This document shows positions 10,285 to 45,395 of a stretch of DNA of 64,000 bases, piece by piece. The stretch is from sequence record MH992122.1; one strand, 5' to 3'. Positions within the stretch are counted from its first letter, which is position 1. Each line of letters starts with the position of its first letter. Both the position numbers and the translations under genes were made by a program. A model generated the notes under the pieces. The model did no database searches. It had not been told where the DNA came from and worked only from the letters and a program-made list of their open reading frames with translations. Source of the stretch: Escherichia phage OLB35.

Positions 10285-10661
10285 TTTACCGCCTTAACAA
10301 TTTTCAGGTCAACGAATTTTTTCTTACGTTGATTTTTCATACGACGGATAGTCTTTTCAGAGATTTCATGTTTCTGATAAGCTTTAGATTCAACACCAAA
10401 TGCAGCAACGTCAAATTCAGAAAGAATATATTGTACTAGAATTTCACGAATAGAATTACGTCCAATTTTCTGGTCATGTTTTTGCATAATTTCGTAAAGA
10501 CGGAATTCCCACGCGTCAAGAACTTGAGGAGTAACAATATTGCCGGATTCCAGAAGAGCAACAACTTTATCGAAAGCGAAAGAATTAACTACGTTTTTGA
10601 TTTTAGTAGACATATTATTTTCCTCGGTTATTTTATTATCCAACGAGAGAATTATACTCAT
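10281..10661 (-). CDS. Hypothetical protein
   Basis: 126-aa ORF; start may be the internal Met (MSTKIKNV...). Confidence 0.45.
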   Translation of the reverse strand: MSIILSLDNKITEENNMSTKIKNVVNSFAFDKVVALLESGNIVTPQVLDAWEFRLYEIMQKHDQKIGRNSIREILVQYILSEFDVAAFGVESKAYQKHEISEKTIRRMKNQRKKKFVDLKIVKAVK

Positions 10662-10679
10662 CTCTCAAGAGTTTGTATA

Positions 10680-10919
10680 CTATTTTTTAAGCATGAAAAG
10701 CAAGTAATTTGTATCGCGTGGAGTAATATCAACACCCATATCAAAGATGCCTTTATAGATTGGGTATTTGTTTTCGGTTGTATCGAAGCTGAAACTATTT
10801 CCATCACAACTAACAGTAATAGCATCTGTTAAAATGTCATACTCAATCCTAACAATTGAATCTCCAATTTTAACGTCGAGGTGTTTTTTGAATTTGATAA
10901 AATCTAATTCTTGGGCCAT
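10680..10919 (-). CDS. Hypothetical protein
   Basis: 79-aa ORF. Confidence 0.45.
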   Translation of the reverse strand: MAQELDFIKFKKHLDVKIGDSIVRIEYDILTDAITVSCDGNSFSFDTTENKYPIYKGIFDMGVDITPRDTNYLLFMLKK

Positions 10920-18868: not shown

Positions 18869-18897
18869 ATTATACTCCAACCATCCTTGGTTGTAAA
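18869..18897 (-). promoter_or_regulatory. Early sigma70-type promoter (GTTTACA-N17-TATAAT) with a palindromic spacer
   Basis: Minus strand reads GTTTACAaccaaggatggttggagTATAAT about 30 nt upstream of the ATG at 18840. Confidence 0.6.
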
Positions 18898-18902
18898 CTA
18901 TT

Positions 18903-19888: not shown

Positions 19889-19917
19889 ATTATACTCCAA
19901 CCATCCTTGGTTGTACA
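19889..19917 (-). promoter_or_regulatory. Early promoter; core identical to the one at 18869-18897
   Basis: Identical ~28-nt core (ttatactccaaccatccttggttgta on the plus strand) upstream of the ATG at 19862. Confidence 0.6.
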
Positions 19918-20913
19918 TCATTCCTTAAGAAGTTTTACTACTTGAATAAGATTAGCTCGTTCTGTTTTATTTTTACCGTTTAAGCCTGCTAATCGTGAGA
20001 TTTCATCGTCAGTCTGTTGAATAGTTACATTAAGTTCGTTAATCAAAGCTTCAAAGTATTTGATTTGCTCAGCATGTTTTGATTCAAATTTCTGAACAGG
20101 AATAACATCTTGGTTCAGTTCATCAATAAGGTCTTTAAGAGCATCTTCTTGGTTGATATCATATTCAACTTCTTTTATTTCTTCAACGAGCTCGTCTTTA
20201 TATCTAACGTCTTTTAGTCCTGGAGCTGGTCCTGAAATCTCTTCTTTAAGAGTACAAACATACCCAATACGGTATCCAATGCCGTCTCGCTTGATATCAA
20301 CTTCGTCGATAAATCCACAATGTTTAAGACCAGAGCCGATTATGTCAAAATATCCTTGACGTCGTCCTTCAAACGTTACACGAACTACTAAGACAGTTTT
20401 ACCACCAACCTTTTGAAGCTCACATTTATAAAAGTCTGTTGAACCTGAATAACGTGGATGAGTTTTAAAGTTCATCTGACGATCTAGGCCCATTTGTAAA
20501 CGTGCTGTTACGGCCATAAAACGTGTTTGGTTCTCGTTAAGATGAGCAACAATCCATTTCAAAGGCATTTTACACTGTTCACGACCGAACAAATCAGTAC
20601 GTCCTAGATTACGCAGGATATTGTTAGAGTTAATCATCGACAGAACGTTAAGTTTATTCAGCGCGCTGAAGATTCCATCAGCCATTGATTTTCCATAACC
20701 TTTACACGCTTTAATAAGTGCTCGCGGCAGATTAGTATAGATTTCAGACGGCATATGAAAATCAAATTTACTAGTCAGTAATTGATGAACTTGGATAGCA
20801 ATTTGCTCGTAATTAAGTGCTCTGCGATCATTATGGTCTTTAAACCACACTTTAATCTGTGAAGCACATAAACCGTTAATTTCATGTTTTACCGCATCAG
20901 ATGTAATACTCAT
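19918..20913 (-). CDS. Hypothetical protein with C-terminal coiled coil
   Basis: 331-aa ORF. Confidence 0.55.
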   Translation of the reverse strand: MSITSDAVKHEINGLCASQIKVWFKDHNDRRALNYEQIAIQVHQLLTSKFDFHMPSEIYTNLPRALIKACKGYGKSMADGIFSALNKLNVLSMINSNNILRNLGRTDLFGREQCKMPLKWIVAHLNENQTRFMAVTARLQMGLDRQMNFKTHPRYSGSTDFYKCELQKVGGKTVLVVRVTFEGRRQGYFDIIGSGLKHCGFIDEVDIKRDGIGYRIGYVCTLKEEISGPAPGLKDVRYKDELVEEIKEVEYDINQEDALKDLIDELNQDVIPVQKFESKHAEQIKYFEALINELNVTIQQTDDEISRLAGLNGKNKTERANLIQVVKLLKE

Positions 20914-21503: not shown

Positions 21504-21530
21504 GTTTTACCTCCAGTAGTTGATAGGTCT

Positions 21531-21559
21531 ATAATAACATAACCATAGACCTTGTAAAC
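21531..21559 (-). promoter_or_regulatory. Early promoter / PeSL-like element
   Basis: Minus-strand TTTACA, ~16-nt spacer, TATTAT; -10 flanked by inverted repeat AGGTCTAT/ATAGACCT. Confidence 0.5.
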
Positions 21560-23007: not shown

Positions 23008-23036
23008 ATAATAACATGTTTAAAGCAAAAGTAAAC
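23008..23036 (-). promoter_or_regulatory. Early/middle promoter
   Basis: Minus-strand TTTACT-N17-TATTAT; a MotA-box-like TTGCTTTA overlaps the spacer. Confidence 0.45.
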
Positions 23037-25679: not shown

Positions 25680-25708
25680 ACTATAACATAATCCTACCAA
25701 GATGTAAA
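25680..25708 (-). promoter_or_regulatory. Early promoter / PeSL-like element
   Basis: Minus-strand GTTTACA-N17-TATAGT; -10 embedded between arms GGTAGGA/TCCTACC. Confidence 0.5.
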
Positions 25709-26108: not shown

Positions 26109-26172
26109 GTTCTCCTCTAGTAAGTAAGGACTACTATAACACAACCTGAGGAGAAGTAAACTGATAATATCC

Positions 26173-26200
26173 AAAAAGCCCCAACCATAAGGAAGGGGCT
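26173..26200 (-). terminator. Rho-independent terminator
   Basis: Minus-strand AGCCCC-UUCCUUAUGGUU-GGGGCU hairpin followed by a U5 tract. Confidence 0.6.
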
Positions 26201-26206
26201 AGTAAA

Positions 26207-31711: not shown

Positions 31712-32014
31712 TTATTTACCTTTAATTACTTTAGCTGCTTCGATAGCCGCTTGCTGAAGGTCATCCATAGACATACCGAATTTAGAAGCAAAGTTATCAA
31801 TTTTCTTTTCGACAGCATTCAAAGGCTTGGCCTGTTTACCTTCATTAGCGCCAGGAAGAGCGAGAATACGCTCTTTGTCAATATAAAGGCTTACAAGTTT
31901 CTTACGGTCTTTATCGGACAAATCATGAAATGAATGGGCCTTTTTATTTATAGCGGCTTCTAATTTACCTGCACTCACTCGCGCTTCAGTAATAAATTCT
32001 TGATATGTTTTCAT
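31712..32014 (-). CDS. ipII: Internal protein II-like (capsid-targeted)
   Basis: N-terminal capsid targeting sequence MKTYQEFITEA...; 100 aa; resembles T4 IPII as recalled. Confidence 0.8.
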   Translation of the reverse strand: MKTYQEFITEARVSAGKLEAAINKKAHSFHDLSDKDRKKLVSLYIDKERILALPGANEGKQAKPLNAVEKKIDNFASKFGMSMDDLQQAAIEAAKVIKGK

Positions 32015-32078
32015 TTTTTGTTTCCTTGTTTGTTTTGATAGAGTAATTATACCATATTAATACTTAAGCGTAAACAAT

Positions 32079-32339
32079 TTAAGCTTTACCGCCAGAAATA
32101 ATTCCGAAGTTGTTAAAATCGTATCCAATATCGTCAACATCTACTTTAGGATTTACTACAACATAAGCAATTTCACTACGTTTTGCATAGGTGTTGATTT
32201 CTTTACCATCGCCACCTAAGAAAGAATACCCATTACGTTTTAATGAGCCAAAGTCTTCGGCATCACCAATTTACTTCGATAGCAGCTTTCTGTTCCGCAG
32301 ATAATGTACTTCAGTGATAAACTCTTGATATGTTTTCAT
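32079..32339 (-). pseudogene. Internal-protein-like gene with in-frame TAA after codon 22
   Basis: ATG at 32339: MKTYQEFITEVHYLRNRKLLSK, TAA at 32271-32273, then the same frame stays open to 32079 (IGDAEDFGSLKRNGYSFLGGDGKEINTYAKRSEIAYVVVNPKVDVDDIGYDFNNFGIISGGKA). Confidence 0.5.
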
Positions 32340-32345
32340 TTTTCC

Positions 32346-32817: not shown

Positions 32818-33099
32818 CTATTTTTCTGAAGCGCCTGAAATATATTTTTCAAGACGTTGTTTCATCAGCGAGCCGTTCTTAGCGATTTCTTCCGGTTTAT
32901 CGCACATACGCAACAAGGCTTCAAGCTTAGCGATATCACTGGTGCGCTCAAATTTGCGAGTATCTATCTTACTAGCAAGTTCAGAAATACGTGCTAATAG
33001 ACTTTCAGCTTCAACCAAAGCTGCACCTAGCTTAGTTGCAAATGTGTCAGTAGCTTCGTTAAGAATAGATTCTGATAAAAATTCACTATATGTTTTCAT
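32818..33099 (-). CDS. Internal protein (CTS-bearing)
   Basis: Starts [10 protein letters not shown]...; 93 aa; adjacent to lysozyme e. Confidence 0.6.
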
Positions 33100-33557
33100 A
33101 TATACGCTTTCCAAGTTCCTGTTTTAAATGTTGAGATTACGCGTTTCGCGCGATTAGGTGTCTGACGATACCATTTAGATTGGGCTAGATTTACTGCCGC
33201 TTCATCCCAACGTTTCTGTTGAAGCATACGAAGAGAATTAGTAAAACCAGCGACGCCTGCTACACCCATTTGGAAGACCATATTGACCAATGCACACCGA
33301 CGAACTGCATCTAAAGAATCATATACCGGTTTAAGTTTAGCATTAACGTCTTCATTAAATAGCTTTTCAGCCTCATCAAGGGTAATTGTACCGTTGCATT
33401 TACGACCGATCATTCTGTCAAGTTCAGCTTTAGCTACGGCTAAAGACGGGTTCTTTGTTACTAAATGGCCTATGCCAATCGTCCAAAAGCCTTCAGTGTC
33501 TTTGTATAAAGTCAGTCTAAGACCTTCGTCATTACGAAGCATTTCAAATATATTCAT
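33096..33557 (-). CDS. e: Lysozyme (endolysin) e
   Basis: [32 protein letters not shown]... matches T4 lysozyme; appears to lack ~9 residues near T4 positions 70-80. Confidence 0.92.
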
Positions 33558-35757: not shown

Positions 35758-35785
35758 AATATTCTCCTCATGTTTTAATAGGACT

Positions 35786-35814
35786 ACTATAACATAGTCC
35801 TATAATTGTGTAAA
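35786..35814 (-). promoter_or_regulatory. Early promoter / PeSL element
   Basis: Minus-strand TTTACA-N17-TATAGT; -10 between inverted arms ATAGGACTA/TAGTCCTAT. Confidence 0.55.
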
Positions 35815-35827
35815 CAGTTTTGCGAAA

Positions 35828-37064: not shown

Positions 37065-37080
37065 TTAATTTGATAGGACT

Positions 37081-37109
37081 ACTATAACATAGCCCTATCT
37101 TGTTGTAAA
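37081..37109 (-). promoter_or_regulatory. Early promoter / PeSL element
   Basis: Minus-strand TTTACA-N17-TATAGT with flanking GATAGGACT/AGCCCTATC arms. Confidence 0.5.
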
Positions 37110-37114
37110 CTGTT

Positions 37115-37910: not shown

Positions 37911-37935
37911 TTTCTACATTCCTTAATAAAGTTTT

Positions 37936-38321
37936 CGATTGTTTCATTTTCACGTTTAGCTAGGAGTTCATTATAACTAATCATTTGAGAAGCGTAAACA
38001 GCATAAATTCAGTTAAGGCTTTTGCATCTTATTTCCTTAACGAATTCCATAGCTTCTTCATATTCATACTTTTTAACAGCTTCGATTGTTTCATTTTCAC
38101 GTTTAGCTAGGAGTTCATTATAACTAATCATTTGAGAAGCGTAAACAACGCCGTCAATAAGAAATCCAACTAATCCAAAGGCAAATCCCATGCCAATACT
38201 CATAATAAAAATTAGAATGTTCTCACCAAGAGAAGGCCAGCATAAATTCAGTTAAGGCTTTTGCATCTTATTTCCTTAACGAATTCCATAGCTTCTTCAT
38301 ATTCATACTTTTTAACAGCTT
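37936..38321. repeat. Segmental duplication, units A-B-A-x-B (A ~65 bp, B ~83 bp)
   Basis: A at 37936-38000 and 38083-38147; B at 38001-38083 and 38239-38321, near-identical; unit A carries GTTTAC-N17-TATAAT on the minus strand. Confidence 0.8.
38009..38203 (-). CDS. Chimeric small membrane protein sharing its C-terminus with the next gene
   Basis: 64 aa; last 22 aa (VKKYEYEEAMEFVKEIRCKSLN) identical to the end of 38248-38640 because of repeat unit B. Confidence 0.4.
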   Translation of the reverse strand: MSIGMGFAFGLVGFLIDGVVYASQMISYNELLAKRENETIEAVKKYEYEEAMEFVKEIRCKSLN

Positions 38322-38640
38322 CATCATACTGAGCTTGGGCTTTTGCGCACTGAACTTTCCATTCTCTTAATCGGGCTCTGTGATGACGTCCTTGGTACCA
38401 ATATCCCATCCAGTTAATAGGCATTAATAAAAACGGTACAATAAGTGGTGCGACGAACATTAATGAAAATGCTGCATCAGACGATATAACTTCACTAGAA
38501 TCTAAAACGGCTCCTATAATCATAAAGATTAAAAATGCTAAAGCTAAAATAGGGCCAAATAGTACTTCATTTGGGATTAATTTACGCTTGTATTCATACG
38601 CCCAGGGCTTACTTGGCATGTATAGGGTTGGCTTTGACAT
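38248..38640 (-). CDS. Membrane protein
   Basis: ~130 aa from the internal Met (MSKPTLYMPSKPWAY...); two TM helices. Confidence 0.5.
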   Translation of the reverse strand: MSKPTLYMPSKPWAYEYKRKLIPNEVLFGPILALAFLIFMIIGAVLDSSEVISSDAAFSLMFVAPLIVPFLLMPINWMGYWYQGRHHRARLREWKVQCAKAQAQYDEAVKKYEYEEAMEFVKEIRCKSLN

Positions 38641-39854: not shown

Positions 39855-39924
39855 ATTATTACCTTTCAATTGGTGGTTTATTATCCAATGAGAGCATTAT
39901 ACTCTGCTCTCAAGAGTTTGTAAA

Positions 39925-40152
39925 TTATTTTTTAATCAAATTGACATAAAACTTGGCGTCTTCCGGGTGCATGCCTTCGCAGTATTCTTCAACCATGAAC
40001 TTCTTAACAGCTTCATAAGGACCACTCAGATTAAGCTCAGTTGTCCAAAACTTGGAATCTTGGGCTGAATCGATACGAACTTCAGGGTGTCGGTTGCGAA
40101 TAACTTCTTCGGTGTATTCATAATCAACGACATCAATACTAACTTTAGCCAT
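39925..40152 (-). CDS. Hypothetical protein
   Basis: 75 aa: MAKVSIDVVDYEYTEEVIRNRHPEV... Confidence 0.5.
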   Translation of the reverse strand: MAKVSIDVVDYEYTEEVIRNRHPEVRIDSAQDSKFWTTELNLSGPYEAVKKFMVEEYCEGMHPEDAKFYVNLIKK

Positions 40153-40700
40153 TTTGTTTCTCCTCTGTAGTTGATAAGTCTTAACTATAGTATCACCATC
40201 ATTGGTGTTTGTACATCATTATTTTTAATTTTTCCAACTTAACAACCTTCAGCCAAGATACAACAGAGTTTTTATCTGAGGATTCAAATTCAGGCATTGG
40301 ACTTTCACCGCGAATAACTTCTTCGGTGTATTCATAATCAACGACATCAATACTAACTTTAGCCATTTTGTTTCTCCTCTGTAGTTGATAAGTCCTATAG
40401 TATCACCATCATTGGTGTTTGTACATCATTTATTTTTAATTTTTCCAACTTAACAACTTGTAGTGTCCTTCATTCATACGTGGTTTATCCCAAGAAATAC
40501 TAATATATGATTCGCCATCAATAGCTTTTTCTTCACCACCACCACTGATAGTCCTCTGTAGTTGATAAGTCCTATAGTATCACCATCATTGGTGTTTGTC
40601 AACTATTATTTTTAATTTTTCCAACTTAAAACTTGTAGTGTCCTTCATTCATACGTGGTTTATCCCAAGAAATACTAATATATGATTCGCCATCAATAGA
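40085..40700. repeat. Three tandem copies of a ~160-230-bp module (gene 3' end, promoter, leader, gene 5' start)
   Basis: Core ...ttttgtttctcctctgtagttgataagtc(c/t)ta...tagtatcaccatcattggtgtttgt... recurs at ~40153, ~40366 and ~40549 with flanking duplicated coding ends. Confidence 0.8.
40199..40366 (-). CDS. Chimeric 55-aa ORF created by the duplication
   Basis: MAKVSIDVVDYEYTEEVIRG...; first 19 aa identical to the start of 39925-40152, then diverges. Confidence 0.3.
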   Translation of the reverse strand: MAKVSIDVVDYEYTEEVIRGESPMPEFESSDKNSVVSWLKVVKLEKLKIMMYKHQ

Positions 40701-41005: not shown

Positions 41006-41033
41006 CTAAAAAGCCCCAACCTTTTGGCTAGGG
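41006..41033 (-). terminator. Rho-independent terminator
   Basis: Minus-strand AGCC-loop-GGCU hairpin followed by UUUUU, 3' of 41043-41507. Confidence 0.5.
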
Positions 41034-41042
41034 TACAGAATG

Positions 41043-41507
41043 TTATTTGATTTGTTTAGCAGACCAAATGCGGTCTTTAATAAGTTTTTGGATATCTTCA
41101 ACATACTCAAGGCTATGAGCGTGAGGATTATCTTTGAAGCTATGTGCTCGTGCCAGTTTCTGGCCTTCAGTTTTGATTACCAAAAGTTCTTTAAGAATTG
41201 CTTCATACTTAGAAATAATTCCTTTGGCGATATTTTTTTCTTGAGCTGCTTTAGGGCCCGCTTTTGGTGCTGGTGCTTTACCTGTAGCTTTCTGGAACAA
41301 TTCACCTGATGCAGCTAGGCTTTTAAAAACTCGGCTAACAGTATTAGCATTAGTAAAACCTTCGGCTTTAAAATCTCTAATAAAACGGAAACGTTCTTCA
41401 TCAGAGGCGTCTTTGTAAGAATATTTACCTGCTTGAATTGCTGCAATCGCAGCGGCTTTTACATCTGAACTAGATTGTTCAGTCAAAAATTCTGCATATG
41501 ATTTCAT
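41043..41507 (-). CDS. Internal-protein-like (CTS-bearing) protein
   Basis: N-terminus MKSYAEFLTE resembles the capsid targeting sequence; 154 aa, Ala/Lys-rich. Confidence 0.5.
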   Translation of the reverse strand: MKSYAEFLTEQSSSDVKAAAIAAIQAGKYSYKDASDEERFRFIRDFKAEGFTNANTVSRVFKSLAASGELFQKATGKAPAPKAGPKAAQEKNIAKGIISKYEAILKELLVIKTEGQKLARAHSFKDNPHAHSLEYVEDIQKLIKDRIWSAKQIK

Positions 41508-41551
41508 GTTACTTTTCCTAAGTTAATTAACTTATCTATTTATTATTATGC

Positions 41552-41580
41552 AAAAAAGCCCCAACCTTTCGGAAGGGGCT
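41552..41580 (-). terminator. Rho-independent terminator at the end of the tRNA/stable-RNA transcription unit
   Basis: Minus-strand AGCCCC-loop-GGGGCU hairpin followed by a U6 tract. Confidence 0.6.
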
Positions 41581-41582
41581 AA

Positions 41583-43839: not shown

Positions 43840-44265
43840 TTTATTTCTCCTTTACTCATTTTGTTTTGATAGGACTACTATAACATATCCATATAGGCTT
43901 GTATATCTTTATTTCAAATATATTGCGTATTTTTTATAGCCACCAGGCTCGTGTCGAAGACCTTTATCATTCGCAAAACGTTGAATGTTATTGAACTGGT
44001 TTTCATCGAATGATGATTTAATCTTAGCTTTAGATCCTTTAGTTATAGAAATAAACATCTCGGAAGACCCTTTCTTAAAGTCTGATGCAGATACTTCAAC
44101 ACCGTTCTTAGCAAGTGACCTCAGAATTGCATCTGCGTACACTTCATATGTGTCGAATATGAAAAAGTTTTGTTAGCTACCAAGCGTGATATATTGAGAA
44201 TCAGTTCAGCGCGTTTCATTTTATTTCTCCATTTACTCATTTTGTTTTGATAGGACTATTATAAC
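43819..44265. repeat. Direct repeat pair (~65 bp each) carrying a PeSL promoter plus the first codons of a gene
   Basis: gaatcagttcagcgcgtttcattttatttctcc...gataggact...ataacat at 43819-43885 and 44198-44265; the second copy starts a 32-codon ORF sharing MKRAELI with 43654-43839. Confidence 0.75.
43909..44142 (-). CDS. Hypothetical basic protein
   Basis: 77-aa ORF. Confidence 0.45.
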   Translation of the reverse strand: MYADAILRSLAKNGVEVSASDFKKGSSEMFISITKGSKAKIKSSFDENQFNNIQRFANDKGLRHEPGGYKKYAIYLK

Positions 44266-44286
44266 ATAGTCCTATCGGCATGTAAA
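44258..44286 (-). promoter_or_regulatory. Early promoter / PeSL element with perfect 10-bp inverted repeat around the -10
   Basis: Minus-strand TTTACA-N17-TATAAT; GATAGGACTA ... TAGTCCTATC arms flank the -10. Confidence 0.6.
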
Positions 44287-44290
44287 CTAC

Positions 44291-44578
44291 TTACAGAAGA
44301 GTTTTTGCAATAATTTTAAGCTGAGCTACAGAAATGTGCTTAGCTTTAAACAGTGCAGTCTCTTCAGCCGGAGAGATAACAATAGTAGCGCCATCTTTCT
44401 TAGCAGACCATCCATCCCCTAAGTAAACAGTACCTTTTACTTCTTCGCCGTCAGCCAGACTAATCATTGGTTTGCCCTCACGTCCTTTATTTGCTTTAAT
44501 AACTTCGGAAGTAAGGGTTGCTTCAGTCAGAGTAGAAACGTTAGCATCAGGTGATATAAATTCTTTATAGGTTTTCAT
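44291..44578 (-). CDS. Internal protein I-like (capsid-targeted)
   Basis: Starts MKTYKEFIS...; 95 aa; sits between the tRNA region and 57B as T4 ipI does. Confidence 0.6.
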   Translation of the reverse strand: MKTYKEFISPDANVSTLTEATLTSEVIKANKGREGKPMISLADGEEVKGTVYLGDGWSAKKDGATIVISPAEETALFKAKHISVAQLKIIAKTLL

Positions 44579-44624
44579 TTTATTTCCTTGAGGCTGTTTA
44601 TTTGATAGGATGATAGTAACACAC

Positions 44625-45395
<771 letters not shown>

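Follow-up and report, generated by a model that had tools for sequence, protein, structure and literature searches.

Inverted repeats at the early promoters of the T4-type phage analysed here are real and under selection for pairing, a conclusion that is statistically solid. They were studied in a window of 64,000 nucleotides (the whole stretch of Escherichia phage OLB35 DNA that was analysed; sequence record MH992122.1), with the promoter at 44287-44249 on the minus strand as the focal case (promoters are designated below by their -10 position, hence 44263), as well as in phage T4 and in loci of related phages. Judging from their sequences, the elements that carry these repeats are very probably the T-even type of PeSLs (promoter-early stem-loops) already described in T4-type phages, while the comparison of arm pairs points to pairing that probably acts in the sense-strand RNA. 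On balance, we favour an explanation of these elements as PeSLs in which a sense-RNA hairpin would form by read-through and have a boundary role.

The element at 44263 and its family

On the minus strand, the 44263 promoter reads GTTTAC atgcc GATAGGACTAT gttata ATAGTCCTATC aaaacaaaatgag (Table 1). It can be described as GTTTAC-N18-TATAAT or equally as TTTACA-N17-TATAAT at 44286-44258, with a TG extension and AT-rich sequence upstream. Its arms make up a perfect inverted repeat of 11 Watson–Crick (WC) pairs around a 6-nt loop and include AGGA...TCCT; as RNA, the hairpin reaches -16.9 kcal/mol, and the sequence 3' of it, AAAACAAAA, is devoid of any U-tract. With the standard sigma-70 spacing, +1 would fall at 44251 and the right arm would thus extend to about +3, which agrees with the initial annotation, where the promoter's own start had been located inside the right arm (here, at the 3' end of that arm).

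The early genes of the window are on the minus strand and all the promoters read there, including a GTTTAC-N18-TACTAT promoter (44642-44613) that lies 355 nt upstream of the 44263 site in the same direction. The 32-codon ORF downstream (44121-44219) duplicates, in truncated form, the 5' end of a trna.4-like gene (repeat family D18). The 3 kb surrounding the site, whose genes include those for dNMP kinase, 57A/57B and internal head proteins, match hundreds of Tequatrovirus (T4-like) phages, with an identity of 96% to Shigella phage Shf125875 and Escherichia phage TH12, and of 99% to CCU7; the window itself is collinear with T4 from about 28 to 94 kb, at 65-94% identity.

At all the sites cited in the initial annotation for a -10 between inverted-repeat arms, these arms are present on the minus strand as described there, and its list can be extended with copies at 37086, 39901, 10656 and 44618, as well as a degraded one at ~43882. 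The right arm is retained despite the loss of the left arm at 23013 and ~43882. Regarding the palindromic spacers reported at 18869 and 19889, the hairpin does exist, whereas the sequence given for it (CCAACC/GGTTGG) was only nearly right, the actual one being CAACCA-agga-TGGTTG.

Table 1. Coordinates of the focal promoter, its neighbours and the other copies in the window
Feature	Position	Strand	Remark
-35 hexamer GTTTAC	44282..44287	-	44263 promoter
Left arm GATAGGACTAT	44266..44276	-	in promoter spacer, about -25 to -15
Loop GTTATA, 6 nt	44260..44265	-	TGn element and first four bases of the -10
-10 hexamer TATAAT	44258..44263	-	last two bases are the right arm's first two pairs
Right arm ATAGTCCTATC	44249..44259	-	predicted +1 is the A at 44251, 7 nt past the -10
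Shine-Dalgarno GGAG (44230-44227) and ATG (44219-44217)	44217..44230	-	of the 32-codon ORF (44121-44219)
IpI-type internal protein gene (MKTYKEFI...)	44291..44578	-	upstream; stop codon 14 nt before the left arm
Early promoter GTTTAC-N18-TACTAT, stem GATGAT/ATCATC	44609..44642	-	upstream of the ipI-type gene
PeSL copy TTGGTAGGATTAT/GTAGTCCTACCAA	25669..25709	-	25685 promoter; 13 pairs, 2 G·U
PeSL copy ATAGGACTAT/GTAGTCCTAT	35778..35815	-	35791 promoter
PeSL copy AGGTCTATG/TATAGACCT	21525..21559	-	21536 promoter; 10-nt loop
PeSL copy GATAGGGCTAT/GTAGTCCTATC	37072..37110	-	37086 promoter; 11 pairs, 2 G·U on the sense strand
motB-type PeSL TGAGAGCA/TGCTCTCA	39889..39925	-	39901 promoter
Second motB-type PeSL TGAGAGA/TCTCTCG, compensatory change	10644..10680	-	10656 promoter; family D14
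Degraded PeSL ATATAC-N18-TATAGT	43868..43906	-	~43882; right arm GTAGTCCTATC kept, left arm diverged; families D1, D3
Class II promoter, spacer against Shine-Dalgarno pairing	26110..26161	-	TTCTCCTC (26155-26148) / GAGGAGAA (26117-26110); predicted start within the loop
Promoter with spacer-internal hairpin CAACCA agga TGGTTG	18869..18898	-	18874 promoter
Paralogous promoter ATGTAC-N18-TATAAT, same spacer hairpin as 18874	19889..19918	-	19894 promoter; family D7

The copies in the window display all the sequence-level features of PeSLs, and the label "PeSL-like" used in the initial annotation proved correct, as they match the published T-even PeSLs. For the PST/T4 pair, Comeau, Arbiol & Krisch 2014 (Genome Biol Evol 6:1611; PMC4122927) give a TTTACW-N17-TAYWAT promoter and more variable stems, "often AGNA-loop-TCNT", which is exactly the stem type seen here (tAGGActa/tagTCCTa). 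As in the window, PST/T4 PeSLs associate this promoter consensus and stem type with AT-rich sequence upstream and a Shine-Dalgarno and ATG at the 3' end, are intergenic beside small variable ORFs and are accompanied by indels and degraded half-copies; the comparison revealed no structural difference. PeSLs had been defined in RB49/phi1 as an early promoter plus a stem-loop (Arbiol, Comeau & Krisch 2010; PMC2839356), with stem-loops that mostly lie between the two hexamers or overlap the -10, G-T pairs drawn in the stems, and cassettes that flank ORFans and recombine. The elements studied here share with them the early promoter with its stem-loop, the overlap with the -10 and the G-T pairs, but the RB49 PeSLs differ in their GC-rich Gn-loop-Cn stems, in their near-perfect TTGACA/TATAAT hexamers and in that one of their stems was shown to block lacZ, and the T-even elements are termed analogues, not homologues, of RB49 PeSLs by these authors (PMC2839356). 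According to the account of Repoila 1994 given in the same article, analogous elements occur at the T-even IP loci, with T4 early promoters and weaker, AT-richer stems; so far as that account goes, the IP-locus elements (Repoila et al. 1994, EMBO J 13:4181) flank internal-protein genes, as is the case here with ipI.

Within our data, there are two repeat families, D1 with 6 copies (68 nt each) and D2 with 4 (86 nt each), whose copies border IP genes and small ORFs. The IP-locus element is itself reportedly a repeat of about 70 bp, in which an inverted repeat overlaps a T4 early promoter. Relative to T4, the window has an insertion of 381 bp, bounded by the 44263 copy and, at its lower boundary, by the degraded ~43882 copy (window 43851-44291 aligned with T4 73525-73591), and downstream of each boundary copy comes the same 5' portion of a trna.4-like ORF (MKRAELI...). 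A slippage product, in the form of a tandem half-copy, is found within 44624-44715, its -35-only part being at 44678-44715 (family D8), while the T4 promoters 123069 and 136312 (-10 positions) are identical. A search of the window against Rfam returned no family for the hairpins and matched just two tRNAs.

Selection for pairing between the arms

Promoters were called from the -35 and -10 hexamers together with a Shine-Dalgarno and a start codon downstream, never from the arms; they were called by pattern because the T4 GenBank and RefSeq records are without promoter features. In the window, GTTTAC-N16-18-TATAAT occurs 7 times, against 0.07 expected. For each promoter, we determined the best helix without gaps that spans the midpoint of the -10, and the control consisted of chimeras whose left and right halves came from two different promoters (300 sets). 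The mean helix amounted to 6.38 WC pairs for the window promoters (n = 13), versus 4.75±0.32 in chimeras, and to 6.45 WC pairs for the T4 promoters (n = 20), versus 4.39±0.20, with 0/300 chimera sets at or above the observed mean. Since natives outpair chimeras, the complementarity belongs to individual promoters and not to a palindromic consensus. To these promoters were added 84 loci from T4-like contigs, retrieved via relatives of the 57B, modB and cd proteins (a search for relatives' loci with the IpI-type protein found none). Altogether, a helix score of at least 6 is observed in 120 of the 191 unique promoters (window, T4 and the 84 loci), corresponding to 93 different arm pairs. This is the census that the initial annotation had proposed as a check on arm complementarity: the latter is above chance (about 5-10 sd over the chimera controls) and promoter-specific.

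Alignment-based measures lead to the same result. When 147 unique promoters are aligned without selection or gaps, pairing in the fixed-register structure (columns 9-22 with 29-42) amounts to 55.7%, while shuffled controls are at 47.7±0.8% (0/500 reach the observed value) and slid partners at 32-46%; the covariation score of this structure is 0.313, compared to 0.208 for shuffled and at most 0.168 for slid controls. Among homologous promoters, the motB-type family, recognizable by its flanks aaactct...agagTATAAT...ggatNataaa and including window promoters 39901 and 10656 along with the T4 motB promoter, has 94.3% of its cells paired and 5 out of 8 pairs changed on both sides, which 0/500 shuffles match. 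Its arms are GAGAGC/GCTCTC, GAGAGA/TCTCTC, GGGAGC/GCTCCC, AGGAGC/GCTCCT, GAGGAC/GTCCTC and GGGACC/GGTCCC. At the IP-locus promoter, one and the same pair is A-U in the window (44263, GATAGG..CCTATC), G·U in locus L007 (GGTAGG..CCTATC) and G-C in locus L005 (GGTAGG..CCTACC). In the orthologous T4 promoter upstream of trna.4, the right arm ACCCTAT is kept while its partner ATAGGGT is shifted by 5 nt and adjoins the -35, so that pairing is conserved and position is not. A weak arm consensus can be written (tAGGAcTA...TAgTCCTAtc), but many promoters have wholly different arms (e.g., GAGAGC, GGTACAGG and CCTAGAATTGTGA), and neither loop length (6 to >30 nt) nor register is constant across helices. 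The chimera, shuffle and homologous-family tests thus agree, and they sustain what had been proposed from the sequence of a few copies, namely that the arms co-vary and are selected for pairing.

Which strand pairs, and rival explanations

Among the internal helix mismatches of the 93 unique arm pairs, read on the sense strand, 20 are G·T, 4 are A·C and 4 are of other types, an excess that is modest in absolute numbers and drawn from arm pairs that are not fully phylogenetically independent. Counted in the fixed register, there are 18 G·T for 6 A·C (p=0.023), against a chimera null of 198:188. As transitions creating G·T and A·C are equally frequent at equilibrium, this excess indicates that G·U is tolerated on the sense strand. 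Only internal mismatches are informative on the strand; the helix extensions at the outer ends, which are not, have no G·T excess (18 vs 23 A·C). Moreover, the sense hairpin is stabler than the antisense one in 75 of the 93 arm pairs (mean -14.1 vs -12.2 kcal/mol, p about 1e-8) and in 18 out of 20 stems with internal mismatches, even though part of this energy gap is due to the consensus-fixed inner pairs G-16·T-7 and T-15·G-8 (TATAGT). The asymmetry between strands is thus an observed result; the G·T excess would also fit a hairpin of the non-template DNA strand, and we infer that the pairing strand is RNA rather than non-template DNA; that a non-template DNA-strand hairpin takes part in early-promoter shut-off is highly improbable.

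The initial annotation had regarded an RNA hairpin as unlikely, the start being inside the right arm, but it overlooked read-through from co-directional upstream early promoters, such as the one 355 nt upstream of the 44263 site. Between that promoter (44642-44613) and the 44263 hairpin, a terminator scan found no terminator-like site, and the hairpin is the dominant structure in the fold of the read-through RNA. The head-of-array promoters of T4 are few, with hairpins that are weak at 150739, AT-only at 107258 and strong at 123069; this last hairpin should count against the read-through model, as no read-through is expected at the head of an array, yet it is a duplicate of that at 136312. A literature search for T4 transcript 5'/3'-end maps, half-lives and structure probing found nothing usable.

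The arm pairs include two classes. In class I (tight), to which 44263 belongs and which includes 50 of the 93 pairs, the right arm ends at -1 to +5; none of the 50 downstream tails has a U-tract (51% A, 23% T) and these hairpins were not called by the terminator scan. Shine-Dalgarno sequestration was considered for class I and rejected on predicted accessibility, which is unchanged at 44263 (unpaired probability from Shine-Dalgarno to AUG of 0.62 in the read-through RNA vs 0.63 in the primary transcript). In class II, which includes 22 of the 93 pairs, it is the part of the spacer adjoining the -35 that pairs, its partner being the downstream Shine-Dalgarno, and the start is within the loop; about a quarter of the helices thus have the spacer as an anti-Shine-Dalgarno. 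For these, the Shine-Dalgarno is predicted to be less accessible in the read-through RNA than in the promoter's own RNA (0.27 vs 0.61 at 26138, 0.25 vs 0.73 at T4 regB, 62773).

At face value, pairing might be a by-product without function, left behind by cassette duplication or gene conversion, or by templated mutation at quasi-palindromes, a process known in T4. The repetition of the cassettes (D1), the slippage products (tandem half-copy within 44624-44715) and the promoters that are identical at two T4 loci are all in line with such an origin. Copying, however, would account for arms that are shared, not for 93 arm pairs that differ from one another and are each complementary, and halves taken from different promoters fail to pair. 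Under templated correction, pairs should be perfect and new mismatches evenly split between G·T and A·C, neither of which is seen, and the slid controls locate the enrichment specifically in the register around the -10, all of which makes a by-product very improbable. It is extremely unlikely that the complementarity is incidental to conserved spacer and post -10 bases contacted by RNA polymerase. T4 early promoters are said in reviews to have "additional regions of consensus" (PMC2988021), the arms do have a weak consensus, and right arms are kept without a left one (23013, ~43882), but a consensus should let chimeras pair like natives, whereas they fail to do so, and neither the entirely different arms of many promoters nor the compensatory double changes in homologous promoters are expected from it.

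The DNA-level readings put forward in the initial annotation, i.e., a cruciform or a dyad-symmetric protein site, fare hardly better and must be deemed very improbable. The cruciform would have to extrude in supercoiled DNA, and the protein might be, for instance, a factor for early-promoter shut-off. In their favour, the palindrome has the -10 at its centre, where melting is important, how T4 shuts off its early promoters is not understood (PMC3014915), and Arbiol et al. (PMC2839356) speculated that PeSL stems might be recognized by a DNA-binding protein. Neither a cruciform nor a dimer bound to the duplex should distinguish G·T from A·C, in contrast to the 20 vs 4 observed, and the sense hairpins are the stabler ones. 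A cruciform further needs the folding of both strands, while the antisense hairpins at 25685 and 37086 are weak with DNA parameters (-2.6 and -3.8 kcal/mol), therefore making a poor cruciform there; a dyad-binding protein would have to cope with 93 different arm pairs in 120 helices, with loops of 6 to >30 nt, a shifting register and no conserved half-site. In general, arms of 8-11 bp with loops of 6-10 nt are poor cruciform formers. The published view is that of a composite promoter-terminator, the hairpin acting as an efficient intrinsic terminator that halts upstream transcription before the next promoter. It draws on the RB49 PeSL211/210 stem-loop, which cut lacZ expression about like the rrnB T1 terminator (PMC2839356), and would agree with an intergenic hairpin directly past the upstream stop codon and with a stability of -13 to -20 kcal/mol. 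Nevertheless, we consider it unlikely, because a U-tract is found in 0/50 tight hairpins and the terminator scan is silent, whereas genuine terminators of the window have a GC-rich stem and TTTTT (e.g., 26173-26201, family D15, just upstream of the promoter at 26161); because the tested RB49 stem is a GC-rich Gn-loop-Cn, while the T-even stems are AT-richer and "weaker" according to the same authors (PMC2839356); and because T4 delayed-early expression needs read-through of early units (PMC2988021). A canonical intrinsic terminator can be rejected on sequence, and the "terminator" label, derived from one GC-rich RB49 stem, is not supported by the sequences of the T-even hairpins examined here.

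Possible roles and significance

According to the reading that we favour, namely a sense-RNA hairpin made by read-through, the PeSL would be an intergenic cassette of about 70 bp, with AT-rich sequence upstream, a very strong predicted sigma-70 early promoter (GTTTAC, TGn, TATAAT-like), a short A-rich leader, and a Shine-Dalgarno with its ATG. Complementarity would be kept between two unconstrained stretches, the spacer (about -26 to -16) and positions -6 to +4, the -10 serving as the loop, presumably because these are the only unconstrained bases in an intergenic space of about 70 nt. A polymerase coming from an upstream early promoter would cross the cassette and produce a stable sense-RNA hairpin (-13 to -20 kcal/mol), while the cassette's own transcript would begin at the 3' edge of the right arm and have no hairpin. 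In class I, the hairpin may then mark where the upstream message ends, whether by blocking 3'-to-5' decay once the RNA has been cleaved downstream (RegB cuts the GGAG of early Shine-Dalgarno sequences; PMC3014915) or by attenuating transcription weakly, and would leave the downstream ribosome-binding site open. By analogy, such a barrier or attenuator role is conceivable, and we advance it tentatively. REP-type intercistronic hairpins of E. coli operons are likewise stable and without U-tract, and they stop 3' exonucleases and protect the upstream message; the parallel with class I is an analogy only, REPs not being promoter-embedded.

In class II, pairing of the spacer with the Shine-Dalgarno would mean that only promoter-proximal transcripts are translated well. 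The T4 genes e, soc, 49 and I-TevI have a promoter inside a hairpin, and their long transcripts fold while the promoter-proximal ones do not (PMC3014915). The same promoter-in-hairpin logic is found in class II (26110-26161 and several T4 early promoters), but the promoters of these T4 genes are late ones and their hairpins always sequester the Shine-Dalgarno or AUG, unlike class I, where the ribosome-binding site is predicted to be left free. Being repeated, the cassette would also lend itself to homologous recombination, by which small genes are shuffled, as at the 44263 site.

A broader proposal, which we regard as possible but rather doubtful, is that the inverted repeats serve most T-even early promoters as a general "transcript-of-origin" code at the RNA level, with two interchangeable designs. 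A start at the edge of the hairpin or inside it would make read-through RNA and the promoter's own RNA structurally distinct: the tight -10 loop would close the upstream message, and the spacer used as anti-Shine-Dalgarno would silence the downstream gene on read-through RNA. If true, such a code would account for part of the "extra consensus" of T4 early promoters.

The element itself is ordinary for T4-type phages and has already been named. In PMC4122927, the stem is treated as a terminator and the focus is on recombination, with no covariation statistics, strand asymmetry, remark on the missing U-tract or class of Shine-Dalgarno pairing; what is new here is limited to the comparative evidence for sense-strand (RNA) pairing, to the missing terminator features and to the Shine-Dalgarno-pairing class. 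The mechanistic correction is that the comparative data favour sense-RNA pairing on read-through over a cruciform or a protein dyad, and it comes with a design rule, in which the hairpin arms fill exactly the two unconstrained segments of a minimal promoter. If confirmed, this would matter for annotating and engineering T4-like phages, whose promoter cassettes would hold a hidden RNA structure, and would bear on the insulation of tandem early units.

Variant hairpins among early promoters

Among the 147 unique T4-type early promoters of the unselected, ungapped alignment A1, the -10 is often TATAGT or TATTAT, not TATAAT, and with these hexamers the hairpin has G·U or U·G as its innermost pairs (79/147 at columns 21/30, i.e., positions -16/-7; 39/147 at columns 22/29, i.e., positions -15/-8). 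Two promoters (23008–23036 and about 43868–43906) still have the usual right arm (TAGACCTATC / GTAGTCCTATC) but no longer a left arm complementary to it; in the promoter at 23013, it is the -35 itself with which the spacer pairs instead (TGTTTA...TAAACA). In both OLB35 and T4, there are also early promoters in which the spacer (tTCTCC...) is the complement of the downstream Shine-Dalgarno and the start site lies inside the loop (see table). For these, the predicted accessibility of the ribosome site is far lower in read-through RNA, i.e., transcripts from an upstream early promoter, than in the promoter's own RNA.

The early promoter at 26161 is directly preceded by one copy (26173–26201) of a three-copy terminator family, the two forming a true terminator-promoter composite, which differs from the -10 hairpins.

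Locations of special promoters, terminators and leader sequences
Feature	Location	Strand	Sequence
Spacer-to-Shine-Dalgarno promoter	window 26110–26161	minus	
Spacer-to-Shine-Dalgarno promoters in T4	-10 sites 62773 (regB), 136312, 15264, 13162, 75405		
Canonical terminator family, three copies	26173–26201, 41008–41036, 41553–41581	minus	GCCCC...GGGGC then TTTTT
Internal head protein leader, five copies	31984–32018, 32309–32343, 33069–33103, 41477–41511, 44548–44582		reverse complement of ATGAAAACATATCAAGAATTTAT... (MKTYQEF...)

Repeats and internal-protein genes

Upstream of the ipI-type gene lies a 54-bp tandem duplication (44624–44715, minus strand), in which the segment tgggccgaagatctaaaataattt(t)cacaaaacaGTTTACataaRgatgatgg is present twice. 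Its upstream copy has a -35 without a -10, and so resembles the "degraded half-PeSLs" (promoter-early stem-loops) that Comeau et al. 2014 (PMC4122927) ascribed to recombinational slippage. Several other exact or near-exact tandem repeats, with a spacing of 147–239 bp (families D9–D13), occupy 37934–38322 and 40096–40699, and include a duplicated GTTTAC-N18-TATAAT match (37975/38122), which sits in a repeated sequence that appears to be coding. Internal head proteins share a conserved N-terminal leader, and its coding sequence occurs five times in the window, which therefore holds about five genes of this type, at no fewer than two loci.

Promoter-bearing segments that differ from T4

The region 43851–44291 contains a 381-bp segment with no counterpart in T4. 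One PeSL copy stands at each boundary, both followed by the same 5' end of a trna.4-like ORF (MKRAELI...), and the interior carries a truncated 32-codon ORF and a 77-codon ORF. The segment resembles a cassette whose insertion or duplication was mediated by PeSLs.

One 62-nt promoter cassette occurs at two distant loci (10632–10693 and 39877–39938), the two copies being 89% identical and having GAGAGA/TCTCTC and GAGAGC/GCTCTC as their respective arms. Since its T4 homologue is located upstream of motB, the genomic place of this cassette varies between phages.
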